DNA of 64,000 nucleotides from Candidatus Peregrinibacteria bacterium HGW-Peregrinibacteria-1. GTDB taxonomy: Bacteria; Patescibacteriota; Gracilibacteria; UBA1369; LOWO2-01-FULL-3. The notes under the pieces were generated by a model. That model did no database searches, was not told the DNA's origin, and was given only the letters and a program-made list of their open reading frames with translations. Numbering within the stretch: the stretch's first letter is position 1; each line of letters starts with the position of its first letter. The stretch spans positions 371,332 through 435,331 of the forward strand of contig PGYE01000001.1 in NCBI GenBank assembly GCA_002839505.1, given 5' to 3'. Of this stretch, positions 47,552-62,937 are shown one piece after another. The translations under genes and the position numbers were made by a program.

Positions 47552-49222
47552 ATGTCAATTAGAGGACAACAATGGCAAATAATCAACACTGACTTTCAAG
47601 GGACGGCATTGGAAAAAATAATGTCACAGCGCATGCAAAACCTCGCCCTGGATCTTGAAAAGTATCACGACCCCTACTGCTTCACTGACATGAAAATCGC
47701 CGTAGATCGTATCGAAACAGCTATAACAAAAAATGAAAAAATCATAATTTTTGGCGACTATGATGTCGACGGAATCAGTGGAACCGCACTTCTATACAAA
47801 GAATTAGAGCAGCTCGGCGCCAATGTCTCATACCGCATACCGAACCGCATGAAGCATGGATATGGCCTCACAATGCCATTTGTCGAGGAATTTATTGAGA
47901 AAAAAATTGATCTCGTGATCACTGTCGACTGCGGAATATCATGCACCAAAGAGGTCGCCGAAGCCGGAAAACATGGGATCGACATAATTATCACCGACCA
48001 TCACACTATCCCTGAAGCAATTCCACAAGCTGTCGCCATCATTCACCCTAAATATGATAATCAATATCCATACCGAGAGCTTACCGGTTCCGGAGTAGCC
48101 TTTAAACTGGCTCACGGACTCATCCAAAGACTTATGCCTAAGGATGCCGAAGAAACACAATTAAAGGAATTAGTTGATCTTGCCTCCCTCGGCACAGTTG
48201 CCGATATGGGGCCTCTCAGCGGAGAAAATCGCCACATTGTCAAACAAGGACTACTTACACTTTCGAATACTCAATGGCCGGGATTAAAACAGCTACTTAT
48301 CAACTCTGGGATTGATCTCGAGAGGGACCCGACGGCCGGCGATATTGGCTTCAAAATAGGCCCAAGAATCAACGCCGCCGGCCGCATCGACGACCCCTAC
48401 ATCGCCCTGCAACTACTACTCCAAAATGAAACCAGCCGCATCACCGAGCTCGGCAATGCCCTTGAAAAAATCAACATCAAACGCATCGAAATGCTTGAAG
48501 AAGCCCTGGCATCCGCCTCTCTTGAAATAGAATCCTTATCAGAAATACCGCCAATAATCATTCTTGAAAACAGCGATTGGCATGTCGGAATTCTCGGACT
48601 CATAGCCAGTCGCATATCTGATAAATACCACCGCCCCACAGTTATTCTACAAGTCTTTGAAGAGTTTTTGACCGCCTCCGCCCGCAGCCCCGAATACTTC
48701 AACATCATTGAAGCCCTCACCCACAACTCCCAATACCTCGAAACCTTCGGCGGACACCACTGCGCCGCCGGATTCAAAGTAAAGAAAGAAAAATATCCCG
48801 AATTCAAATCCTCACTCACAGACTATTCTCGTAAAACCATCACCGAAATACCACAACCTGTTATCAAAATTGACTGCGAAATATCACCCGACGAACTCGA
48901 CCTCCAATTCGAAAAAGAAATTTCCAAACTCGCCCCCTTCGGAATCGGAAACTCCCGACCAAAACTGCTTTTGACCGGAATATCACCACAATTTCCTCAA
49001 GCCATCGGCAAAGACAACAAACACTTAAAATTCACCGCACAAATCGGCAACAAAACCTTTAACACTATCGCCTTTAATATGGGAGAACACCTCGAAACAA
49101 TCAAAGGAGAATCCACCATTGATCTTGTCTTCTCCCCCGAAGCTAACAACTGGCGAGGCAACACCTCACTCCAACTACAAATCCACGACATTAGGGTAAA
49201 CGAACAACCCACGCATCTCTAA
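47552..49222 (+). CDS. recJ: Single-stranded-DNA exonuclease RecJ
   Basis: GDYDVDG, ITVDCG, ITDHH, LGTVADM, GPRINAAGR, FGGH, LAPFGIGN. Confidence 0.97.
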   Translation: MSIRGQQWQIINTDFQGTALEKIMSQRMQNLALDLEKYHDPYCFTDMKIAVDRIETAITKNEKIIIFGDYDVDGISGTALLYKELEQLGANVSYRIPNRMKHGYGLTMPFVEEFIEKKIDLVITVDCGISCTKEVAEAGKHGIDIIITDHHTIPEAIPQAVAIIHPKYDNQYPYRELTGSGVAFKLAHGLIQRLMPKDAEETQLKELVDLASLGTVADMGPLSGENRHIVKQGLLTLSNTQWPGLKQLLINSGIDLERDPTAGDIGFKIGPRINAAGRIDDPYIALQLLLQNETSRITELGNALEKINIKRIEMLEEALASASLEIESLSEIPPIIILENSDWHVGILGLIASRISDKYHRPTVILQVFEEFLTASARSPEYFNIIEALTHNSQYLETFGGHHCAAGFKVKKEKYPEFKSSLTDYSRKTITEIPQPVIKIDCEISPDELDLQFEKEISKLAPFGIGNSRPKLLLTGISPQFPQAIGKDNKHLKFTAQIGNKTFNTIAFNMGEHLETIKGESTIDLVFSPEANNWRGNTSLQLQIHDIRVNEQPTHL

Positions 49223-49239
49223 GAAAATTATTATGTGGC

Positions 49240-49518
49240 ACAATCTTATTCTGATTGGGCGTATCGGAGCCTTTGCGGGCCGGTGCCACCTACAGACTGA
49301 ATTCAGGATAATCTTCACCTATTACTTATTTTGCGTCATTATTACGATTATGTCGAGCGATCATGCATCGCGAGACATGGGCAAGGCGTACATGCTAGCC
49401 GCAGCCCATTTAATCGCTGAAAGCAAAATAAGTATGGTGAAGATTACCTAAAAGGCGAGATCTGAGGTGCAATTTCCCGCCGGGGAAATTGACACCGTCC
49501 CAAATAGAATAAGATTGT
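49240..49518 (+). ncRNA. Unidentified highly structured ~280-nt element (candidate ncRNA or non-autonomous element)
   Basis: Nested complementary segments: 49240-49252/49506-49518 (13 bp perfect), 49309-49319/49436-49446, 49323-49334/49423-49434, and side hairpins. G-U pairs favour the + strand. Confidence 0.55.
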
Positions 49519-49571
49519 CCCCCGCAGCCCACTTAATCGCTGAAAGCAAAATAAGGATGGCGAAGATTGCC
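49399..49571 (+). repeat. 50-bp direct repeat pair (46/50 identical)
   Basis: 49399-49448 ccgcagcccatttaatcgctgaaagcaaaataagtatggtgaagattacc versus 49522-49571 ccgcagcccacttaatcgctgaaagcaaaataaggatggcgaagattgcc. Confidence 0.9.
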
Positions 49572-49577
49572 GCACCC

Positions 49578-49606
49578 TTGACTAAAACACAAAAAAGAAT
49601 TATAAT
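49578..49606 (+). promoter_or_regulatory. Near-consensus sigma70 promoter for the DHH phosphoesterase gene
   Basis: TTGACT-N17-TATAAT, 26 nt upstream of ATG 49633. Confidence 0.75.
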
Positions 49607-49632
49607 TACAAAATAATATTTTTCACAACCTA

Positions 49633-51126
49633 ATGGGTTACGAACAAACAATCAATCAGATTATATCGCTCATCAACAGGAGTCAGCGCATCCTAATATT
49701 ACCATCGACACCCGTTGACGGAGACTCCGTTGGCAGTGCCATTGCCTTCTATATCGTACTCAAGAAACTCAATAAAGATGTGACCGTAGTTTGCAACGAC
49801 CCCATACCCGATGTTCTCAAATTCCTGCCAAAAATTTCCAGCATTAGCCAAAACATGAACTCATCCAATGATTTCATTATTTCTATTAATGACCGAGAAA
49901 TAGAAATAGCCAATCTTCACACAACCCGAGAAGGAGATAAGTTTAATATCGTAATTACCCCAAAAAATCGCAATATTACCCCCGACGATGTCACATTTTT
50001 GCGAGGAGAATCTGAGTATGACTTGATCATCACAGTTGACTGCGCCGAATTAAAACAGCTCAAAGGCATCTATGAAAACAACACCGAACTCTTCCACAGT
50101 TTACCAGTAATCAACATCGATCATCACATCTCAAACACCAACTACGGAAAAATAAACCATGTCGATGTCATGGCCTCCTCCGCCACTGAAATAATATTTT
50201 CCATCCTTAAACGGCTATCAGAAGAACATAACACTCAGCTCATCGATGAAGATGTTGCCACGCTCCTGCTCACCGGAATCATCACCGACACCGGAAGCTT
50301 CCAAAACGCCAACACCACACCCCGCTCCTTCGCCAAAGCCGCTGAACTCGTCGCATACGGCGCTCGCCAACAAGAAATCATTCAACAAATTTACAAAACC
50401 AAGCAACTCAGCCAGCTCAAGCTCTGGGGCCGAGTTTTATCAAAGATCCAAACCGATGAAACCCACAAAATAGTTTGGTCCGTTGTAACTCAACAAGACC
50501 TCAAAGACACCGAAAGCCTAATGGAACAAACTGGCGACATCATTGATGAATTGATGACCAACGCTCCAGGCGCTGAAGTCATAGTTTTAATCAAAGAAAA
50601 GGAAAACGGCCAAATATCTGGAAGTATCAGAACGACACATGCCAGCGTCGATGCCTCCGCAATTGCCGAACATTTTGGTGGCGGGGGACACACCCAAGCT
50701 GCCGGATTTACCATGCAAAACACCACTCCCTCAGACGCCGAATACAAAATCATCAACCACATCAAAGACTACCAAAAAAATCATCTTAACATTAAAGATG
50801 GAGCCAAAGCGCCTTCCTCAAAAAAGAGCCAAAAACCTATTATTGATGTCCAAAAACTGATTGCCAAGATCAAAGAAGTCCAAAAAGTTAACCAAATAAT
50901 GCCAACTATTGATGACTCCTCCCACCTTAAAATCTATCAACCAGAAGATACTGCTGATCAGGATGACCTGGATCAAGAGGAATCCGCACAATCAATAAAA
51001 AAAGCACCAGAAAAACAACCAAAATCTTCCGCCAAAAACTCCATTAAAAGCACTCCTTCACCAAAATCCGAGCCACCAAAAACCGCGACCGATATTCACA
51101 AAAACACCTATCGCTTTGAGGAATAA
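49633..51126 (+). CDS. DHH/DHHA1 phosphoesterase (NrnA-like nanoRNase/pAp phosphatase)
   Basis: VDGDSVGS, ITVDC, NIDHH, GIITDTGSF, FGGGGHTQAAG; disordered C-terminal tail. Confidence 0.88.
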   Translation: MGYEQTINQIISLINRSQRILILPSTPVDGDSVGSAIAFYIVLKKLNKDVTVVCNDPIPDVLKFLPKISSISQNMNSSNDFIISINDREIEIANLHTTREGDKFNIVITPKNRNITPDDVTFLRGESEYDLIITVDCAELKQLKGIYENNTELFHSLPVINIDHHISNTNYGKINHVDVMASSATEIIFSILKRLSEEHNTQLIDEDVATLLLTGIITDTGSFQNANTTPRSFAKAAELVAYGARQQEIIQQIYKTKQLSQLKLWGRVLSKIQTDETHKIVWSVVTQQDLKDTESLMEQTGDIIDELMTNAPGAEVIVLIKEKENGQISGSIRTTHASVDASAIAEHFGGGGHTQAAGFTMQNTTPSDAEYKIINHIKDYQKNHLNIKDGAKAPSSKKSQKPIIDVQKLIAKIKEVQKVNQIMPTIDDSSHLKIYQPEDTADQDDLDQEESAQSIKKAPEKQPKSSAKNSIKSTPSPKSEPPKTATDIHKNTYRFEE

Positions 51127-62862: not shown

Positions 62863-62937
62863 GCGGGTGTCGTATAATGGCTATTACCATAGCCTTCCAA
62901 GCTATTGACAGGGGTTCGATTCCCCTCACCCGCTCCA
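62863..62937 (+). tRNA. tRNA-Gly (TCC)
   Basis: Acceptor GCGGGTG/CACCCGC, anticodon arm ATAGC-CTTCCAA-GCTAT, T arm AGGGG-TTCGATT-CCCCT, encoded CCA. Confidence 0.96.

Follow-up and report, generated by a model that had tools for sequence, protein, structure and literature searches.

What is the branched structure of roughly 280 nt that fills the spacer between recJ and a DHH nuclease gene in a Peregrinibacteria-like bacterium of the Candidate Phyla Radiation (CPR), and is it an RNA gene at all? The window, that is, the whole 64,000-nt stretch of DNA analyzed here, corresponds to G000:C1:371332-435331 of the source genome (G000), a single contig of 998,424 bp that is 98% complete. A first-pass annotation had described one branched structure at this site and offered three explanations: a novel class of noncoding RNA (ncRNA), a highly diverged housekeeping RNA, or a structured nonautonomous mobile element. 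We find that the structure is no single-copy RNA gene. It is a nest of two noncoding palindromic repeat elements, an outer element X and an inner element Y, and the forked core of Y is shared by many related groundwater bacteria. In our judgment, the family is probably a nonautonomous repeat that acts as folded single-stranded DNA.

The structure itself stands as first described. All helices named in the first-pass annotation are present in the sequence and are reproduced in the minimum free energy (MFE) fold, which shows the closing stem, side hairpins at 49261-49286 and 49470-49491, and, at the far end of a long arm, the fork formed by hairpins P3 and P4. The RNAfold check against shuffles that had been suggested gave a clear result: the MFE of 49235-49525 is -124 kcal/mol, compared with -78.0 ± 5.2 kcal/mol in 200 dinucleotide shuffles, none of which folded as well (z -8.84; 0/200). 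The complementary strand reaches -127.2 kcal/mol (z -9.87); because it folds equally well, the fold cannot indicate the strand. The closing inverted repeat (49237-49259 with 49499-49521) spans 23 nt at 87% complementarity, and a perfect 12-nt pair joins 49323-49334 to 49423-49434. We also found a 50-nt direct repeat, absent from the earlier description, whose two units (49399-49448 and 49522-49571) are 92% identical.

A BLAST search of G000 with this sequence returned seven other near-full copies at 75-91% identity, plus many partial ones. In total, about 18 loci are present in the 998-kb genome, every one on the + strand, and seven of them carry a full Y core. The search for copies and homologs that had been proposed thus yielded many of both, and the single-locus view did not survive it; the element had been overlooked as multicopy. 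Mapping by BLAST and by alignment of eight copies resolved the modules of the window locus as follows.

49237..49521, + strand: composite of both elements, with Y inside X; defined by its fold, z-score, inverted repeat, and near-full copies elsewhere
49237..49308, + strand: 5′ half of X, comprising one arm of the closing stem (49237-49259), a side hairpin (49261-49286), and the 5′ strand of the helix at the base of the long arm
49309..49449, + strand: inner element Y, 141 nt, with arm B (49309-49349), forked core C (49350-49407), and arm B′ (49408-49449)
49350..49378, + strand: fork hairpin P3, with apical loop CATGC (49362-49366) and a 3x3 internal loop
49379..49407, + strand: fork hairpin P4, with apical loop GTACATGCTA (49388-49397)
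49450..49521, + strand: 3′ half of X, comprising the 3′ strand of the helix at the base of the long arm, a side hairpin (49470-49491), and the other arm of the closing stem (49499-49521)
49522..49571, + strand: half-copy of Y made up of the P4 3′ strand and arm B′; identity to 49399-49448, 92%

Here, Y occupies the central loop of X. About ten other loci of G000, all on the + strand, carry X without Y, in a short version about 145 nt long. Where X stands alone (for example, at 120555-120715, 133694-133850, and 679858-680010), it forms a long stem topped by a pair of hairpins, similar in shape to Y but unrelated in sequence. Its terminal inverted repeat of 13-23 nt is kept between copies. BLAST against 40 relatives found no homolog of X, which we detected in G000 only. 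The two elements nest in both directions. Y lies inside the loop of X with both ends of X kept at 256957, at 338384, at the window locus, and at 885775, and in two truncated cases at 138552 and 906243. Conversely, X lies inside the arms of Y, having entered at the P4 loop, at 120513, 133635, 652259, and 679828. All three levels of nesting, B[A(B C B′)D]B′, are preserved at G000:493421-493753. The window locus is the same nest minus its leftmost B, which accounts for the 50-nt direct repeat; judged by its sequence, 49522-49571 is the remnant of an outer Y that formerly enclosed X(Y).

Assemblies of sequencing reads behave as expected of a repeat. In four DNA runs, the Logan contigs are broken within the structure, where the summed depth reaches as much as about 30-fold that of the flanks, and their joints come from other copies; the breaks and the excess depth are consistent with a multicopy element. 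No excision variant of the window locus was present in these contigs. Separately, one repeat locus (924910-925253) lies close to a housekeeping gene, the RNase P RNA (bacterial type A, 153 bits, G000:925309-925693), which starts 56 nt past it.

Beyond G000, the fork alone is conserved. In the BLAST search of 40 relatives, the match was to the fork core, in other genera, where each core is enclosed by a 20-30-bp closing stem whose sequence is unrelated from copy to copy, even inside a single genome. Thus, four copies in the relative G025 are alike over the core only, with completely different outer arms. Alignment A2 combines the cores of 18 copies, each with about 10 bp of its own closing stem; on it we built a covariance model, R1, which scores the window copy of Y at 100.7 bits. 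In a sample of 151 of the 205 genomes of the order, R1 found the element at E values up to 0.001 in 37, at 1-15 copies per genome, with G003, G109, G111, G176, and G196 among the high-copy genomes. Positive genomes fall in six families (f1, 9/21; f2, 8/22; f3, 2/3; f4, 8/8; f14, 1/9; f19, 8/11), with none in the other families. A class-wide sample of 151 genomes gave R1 matches only in G000 and four genomes of the same order, and none in the other orders sampled. Exact-pattern scans located the core only in records titled as Peribacteria, Peregrinibacteria, or Gracilibacteria metagenome-assembled genomes; a pattern scan of metagenomes returned five loci, one a true homolog (L032) and four chance matches that lack the palindrome. 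An exact-pattern search of viral contigs gave 0 matches, and BLAST of phage and plasmid collections gave none. A literature search, at the level of search results, returned no description of a forked-hairpin family of this kind. Neither Rfam nor the literature searched contains the family.

What stays constant in the Y family is the three-way junction together with a pair of apical loops, CATG(C) and GTACATGYTA. All stems of Y, among them the 20-60-bp closing stems, vary freely between copies yet stay Watson–Crick paired. RNAalifold predicted 22 pairs on alignment A2, 15 of them with compensatory changes. For a larger sample, we aligned 81 R1 matches (77 distinct rows from 30+ genomes; alignment A3). 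Standard pairs fill 95.8% of its pair cells, compared with 57.7% in column shuffles and 33-40% with slid partners; although fitting A3 to the covariance model favors structure, the margin is very large. Changes on both sides occur at 21/22 pairs, and the 562 cells with double changes were reached by 0/500 shuffles. Compensatory changes affect all eight pairs of P3 (8/8) and 7/8 pairs of P4. At the same time, the letters C, A, T, and G of the P3 loop are kept in 74, 74, 70, and 74 of the 77 distinct rows, and nine of the ten positions of the P4 loop in 69-77 of 77, the eighth position being T in 53. Because loops and pairing persist while the stems diverge, it is the folded form, not the duplex sequence, that is constrained. 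Selection on the fold, which the first-pass annotation had suspected from bulged and branched pairing at one locus, is thus borne out by overwhelming covariation across copies.

Two relatives illustrate how far this can go. In genus g4 (genome G111), P3 and P4 have longer and wholly different stems but the same loops. In G176, twelve copies have homologous 28-bp closing stems that differ at many positions, each difference being compensated. The G176 loci L126-L137 also present a hairpin of about 230 nt in three helical tiers, where the internal loops between tiers are conserved in sequence and the tiers vary with perfect compensation.

The pairing chemistry points to DNA. Pairs of P3 and P4 (1194 cells) are 97.0% Watson–Crick, 1.1% G·U, and 0.6% A·C; in tRNAs of the same genome, G·U makes up 6.0% of pairs (38/629, from the acceptor, anticodon, and T stems of 37 tRNAs). 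The copies in G000 have near-equal folding energies on both strands. A link between the conserved CATG and its avoidance or a restriction system was considered and rejected, as CATG is unremarkable in G000 (observed/expected, O/E, 0.85). A different tetranucleotide, ACGT, is strongly avoided in this genome, with 181 occurrences against about 1210 expected from trinucleotides (O/E 0.15; other 4-bp palindromes, 0.68-1.11); this may be the footprint of a restriction system.

Orthologous sites show that the element comes and goes as a unit. At a site between ychF-like and hisA-like genes (G025a), it is present in G025 and G184 and missing from G183, G185, and G186; a second site of G025 (G025b) is empty in G184. 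The closing stems are part of the element, because the empty orthologous sites lack them too. We therefore rejected the idea that the outer stems are pre-existing host hairpins or another repeat: they are absent from the empty sites and occur nowhere else in G025. Between the filled orthologs of G025 and G184, the closing stem carries a double compensatory change from TT/AA to CC/GG.

The elements are also polarized along the chromosome. In G000, 18/18 loci are on the + strand; tRNA genes are divided 23 to 14, and ORFs about 426 to 349, between the + and − strands. The four copies in G025 all lie on the + strand (4/4). Among the matches listed for R1 in the order sample, a hand count found a single strand in use on 20/26 contigs with at least two matches and on 9/10 with at least three. 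Genes flanking the 29 top matches show even patterns (++ 7, +- 7, -- 7, -+ 4, with four not scorable), and orientation is therefore not linked to gene direction. Instead, it tracks strand composition. GC skew read in the orientation of the element was negative at the top match in 23/32 genomes (two-sided binomial p 0.02), and top matches with |skew| of 0.1 or more were negative in 13/14 cases, the displayed strand being the C-rich strand; both these and the concordance counts overstate significance, as kin genomes are not independent. Skew was taken over windows of mostly 8-20 kb (in G021, 2 kb; in G000, the entire genome), which replaced local 3-kb windows that were too noisy. On contig G155:C2, two matches lie on opposite strands, and the skew, in contig orientation, is -0.02 at one and +0.17 at the other.

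The chromosome of G000 is itself extreme in this respect. Its + strand consists of 15.2% G, 28.1% C, 32.7% A, and 24.0% T, and none of its 40 bins of 25 kb has a GC skew outside the range -0.18 to -0.41. Third codon positions carry the bias for genes on both strands, which indicates a mutational bias tied to the strand. Two other single-contig genomes from the order have a weaker skew of the same sign in every window sampled (G025, 10/10 windows; G057, 8/8 windows). A passage of PMC7143001 describes strand disparity in Microgenomates UBA1400 and, citing PMC4736985, states that Peregrinibacteria are normal in strand composition. The one-sign skew of G000, G025, and G057 suggests unidirectional or otherwise unusual replication.

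A known class of mobile gene in this order is polarized as well. On G057:C1 (a single contig of 1.34 Mb), 18 Y1 transposase matches fall at about 13 loci, 11 of which are on the − strand, its G-rich strand. These IS200/IS605-type genes are polarized along the chromosome and provide a calibration for the polarity of the repeat.

These four lines of evidence, namely Watson–Crick chemistry, chromosome-bound orientation, tracking of skew, and gain and loss of whole elements, are the reason that we favor a repeat acting as single-stranded DNA. In the mechanism that we propose, a single strand exposed most plausibly at the replication fork would fold into a T-shaped hairpin, a long stem capped by the fork, and would thereby offer two loops to a sequence-specific recombinase, transposase, or nuclease. 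Copies would be inserted or maintained in one orientation relative to fork movement. Loops of other hairpin copies would be favored insertion targets, which would explain the nesting of X and Y. The arms might stay complementary on both strands either because folding is selected for or because the hairpin is repaired internally. On the usual reading of skew, the displayed strand would be the leading-strand template, and the active fold would be the complementary one, on the G/T-rich lagging-strand template.

A number of observations weigh against this proposal. No target-site duplication is visible at the ends of X in five copies, and comparison of filled and empty sites of Y gave a tentative 5-6-nt A-rich duplication at one site, the other site being too diverged. 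Our scan for an enzyme covered the Y1_Tnp and RVT_1 families, with DDE, IS110, and tyrosine/serine recombinase families outside it, and found neither a Y1 transposase nor a reverse transcriptase in G000. Y1_Tnp is present in 10/37 element-positive and 31/114 element-negative genomes, taking the two evenly drawn 151-genome samples as identical (the handles listed for them agree), and no R1 match lies beside a Y1 gene. The polarity, moreover, is not absolute: strands are mixed on 6/26 multi-match contigs, and the copies at G110:C10:5573 and G111:C3:73743 are on the G-rich strand despite strong skew. In G000, a + strand gene follows 15/18 loci at a distance of 42-89 nt, and no locus has − strand genes on both sides. 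In several copies, the displayed strand folds better than the opposite one by 9-26 kcal/mol (-94.9 vs -68.9 kcal/mol in G021 and -80.5 vs -64.8 in L032, as well as five G111 copies), as is also predicted by an RNA or by a single active strand. Finally, the diverged copies within G176 remain perfectly paired, a degree of conservation beyond that expected of a selfish repeat in decay and one that could reflect a host function at each site.

Two candidates for mobilization were examined and rejected. A Y1 transposase as mobilizer is absent from G000, unassociated with the element across the order, and not adjacent to its copies. Close pairs of elements as the ends of a larger autonomous element were likewise dismissed, as the genes between them are housekeeping genes (GroEL, a racemase, a thioredoxin-reductase-like oxidoreductase, and a 5′-3′ exonuclease).

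Tests for a known RNA family or a coding gene at the locus were negative. At the gathering thresholds of Rfam 15, the sole match in the window is a tRNA at 62863, so that no family claims the structure, in line with the novelty first suspected. A permissive scan of 49150-49680 (E up to 10) returned only RT-3 (15.7 bits against a threshold of 40.5; E 0.22) and a fungal snoRNA (E 8.7), and three loci from relatives had no Rfam match at E up to 0.1. The RT-3 match was set aside as chance, given the lack of a match at the elements of relatives and of a reverse transcriptase in G000. An ORF at 49233-49451 (72 aa) was rejected as protein coding: its ATG lies in the unique flank, and its frame is not conserved among copies. 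Within Y, one frame is open in 4/7 copies and another in three, and compensatory changes in the stems alter residues.

That the long arm with its distal fork is a highly diverged housekeeping RNA, such as signal recognition particle (SRP) RNA, 6S RNA, RNase P RNA, or transfer-messenger RNA (tmRNA), is almost certainly wrong. The shape had prompted the suggestion, and the slot looks empty: neither bacterial SRP RNA model (the large one at E up to 1) has a match in G000, and the Rfam small SRP RNA is found in 0/31 genomes (G000 and 30 relatives). An RNA with seven full cores in one genome, multicopy, nested, and so patchy that it occurs in only 37/151 genomes does not fit such a role; nor does it match Rfam beyond the two chance-level hits, and RNase P RNA and tmRNA (G000:189309-189727) are encoded elsewhere. 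G000 further lacks a match to the Ffh M domain (SRP_SPB) and any SRP54-type GTPase above cut-off, its best being a subthreshold match of 18 bits at 908395-908499, with search controls positive in 11-14 of 14 known genomes. With no SRP protein found, an SRP-like RNA would have no partner. The SRP/FtsY pathway has either been lost or has diverged beyond the models used.

A new multicopy family of structured ncRNA, or of cis-acting RNA modules such as stabilizers or processing sites, is possible, though we think it doubtful. In such an RNA, the self-complementary CAUG of both loops could kiss or bind protein, and the long stems could serve as duplexes of the RNase III type. The very strong covariation, the conserved loops, and the absence from Rfam suit it, as do three of the difficulties raised above, namely the better fold of some copies on the displayed strand (owing to G·U pairs), the perfect pairing of diverged copies in one genome, and the placement of loci upstream of + strand genes. 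However, orientation follows the chromosome strand and its skew rather than the genes, and 7/25 scorable loci are antisense to both neighbors; G·U pairs are scarce in the fork relative to tRNAs of the same genome; the copies in G000 fold about equally on the two strands; and the elements nest in each other's loops and come and go as whole units. On the + strand at 49237-49521, there is also no good promoter-like site 5′ and no terminator-like site 3′. Of the original proposal of a novel ncRNA class, the novelty of the structure stands, and the RNA assignment is disfavored by its Watson–Crick pairing, its orientation to the chromosome, and the lack of a promoter-like site before the window copy. 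Less probable again, and in our view unlikely, is a single-stranded DNA site that is useful to the host rather than selfish, that is, a polar replication signal for priming, restart, recombination, or fork handling. The one-sign asymmetry of these chromosomes could reflect unidirectional or strand-displacement-like replication, with all copies of G000 and G025 on the C-rich strand and the skew of both chromosomes keeping one sign throughout; the association with skew across genomes, the pairing kept on both strands, the conserved loops, and the lack of a linked transposase in the Y1 scans agree with this. Against it, the element was not found in 114/151 genomes of the order, including whole families, and thus cannot be essential; its spacing in G000 is very uneven; G057 has one-sign skew and is not among the R1-positive genomes (assuming its inclusion in the 151-genome sample); and gain and loss between congeners, with nesting, are habits of selfish repeats.

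Very unlikely, by comparison, is an inactive, decayed palindromic insertion, a relic of inverted duplication. The G000 copies, at 75-94% identity, include none that is very recent, many loci are truncated, and the scan for Y1_Tnp and RVT_1 enzymes came up empty. Nevertheless, 97% of fork pairs are Watson–Crick across copies that differ at most stem positions, the loops are constant across six families of the order, where neutral decay would break pairs, and orthologous copies carry compensatory double changes. Such purifying selection on loops and pairing refutes neutral decay for the family at large, although individual truncated loci may be relics. This leaves the structured nonautonomous mobile element, the last of the three original proposals, as the best fit to a repeat that is multicopy, nested, strand-polarized, and present or absent at orthologous sites.

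Pfam confirmed the flanking genes as first assigned, with RecJ at 47552-49222 and a DHH/DHHA1 protein at 49633-51126, and the element, which starts 15 nt past the recJ stop codon, occupies the space between them. One further feature lies downstream of it.

49578..49606, + strand: promoter-like site for the DHH gene, TTGACT and TATAAT with a 17-nt spacer (11/12 matches)

This near-consensus site of the sigma-70 type lies 27 nt from the DHH ATG on its upstream side, just beyond the repeat. The sequence 3′ of other copies in G000 is not repeated, and the site is thus no part of the repeat; the element has left it intact. At its other end, the element may affect the 3′ end of recJ.

Several described systems share some of these features. 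REP/REPIN sequences with their RAYT transposases and the IS200/IS605-derived palindrome-associated elements (PATEs) are recognized as folded single strands, move as single-stranded DNA, and show replication-biased orientation. The present family resembles them in being a short, noncoding, intergenic, multicopy hairpin repeat with an orientation bias relative to the replicated strand. It differs in size (140-250 nt), in its three-way junction with two conserved loops, and in long closing stems that vary between copies; it also lacks a cognate Y1 (HUH) transposase in G000 and any association with one across 151 genomes. Correia/CREE elements of Neisseria, ERIC/IRU, RUP, and BOX are nonautonomous, palindromic, intergenic repeats in tens of copies that resemble miniature inverted-repeat transposable elements (MITEs). 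They often lie by promoters or in 3′ untranslated regions, and both they and the present element break short-read assemblies and can nest. Classical MITEs conserve their terminal inverted repeats and show target-site duplications, whereas here the apical loops and the junction are conserved and the outer arms vary but pair. Strict chromosome-strand polarity is not a known MITE trait either, and no parent insertion sequence was found among the Y1_Tnp and RVT_1 families scanned.

The attC sites of integrons and the forked-hairpin attP(+) site of CTX phage are folded single-stranded recombination sites of which one strand is active. As in these sites, the fold is conserved along with a small number of bases that are unpaired or lie in loops, stems vary, and orientation matters relative to replication. 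Unlike attC, the element has no cassette arrays or nearby integrase, and its copies stand singly in intergenic spacers; attC R/L boxes and tyrosine recombinases were outside the survey. Parvoviruses end in T- or Y-shaped terminal hairpins, such as the inverted terminal repeat of adeno-associated virus (AAV), where a protein reads one hairpin tip. The likeness is one of shape only, a long perfect stem with two small hairpins at a three-way junction: the element is chromosomal and internal, shows no flip/flop isomers, and keeps one orientation among copies. To our knowledge, no Rep-like gene is associated with it. Its conserved loops, pure Watson–Crick covariation, mutual nesting, and chromosome-strand polarity together set the family apart from described bacterial repeats.

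A bolder possibility, about which we remain doubtful, is that the family is a polar single-stranded DNA signal on one template strand of an end-to-end unidirectional chromosome, or else a multicopy RNA with kissing CAUG loops; either would be a new family of nucleic acid without a described relative. In the former version, it would be a lineage-specific site for priming, restart, or recombination, shaped like a parvoviral hairpin and copying itself into hairpin loops.

Short-read assemblies break at the repeat, and single copies are prone to misannotation as a novel RNA gene, as the present locus illustrates. With 81 instances and a working covariance model, this is the first defined family of structured repeats in CPR bacteria of the Peregrinibacteria/Peribacteria type. 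As a repeat that probably acts as folded single-stranded DNA, it would provide a natural marker for the replication of tiny genomes with one-sign skew and a lead toward a putative enzyme acting on single-stranded DNA.

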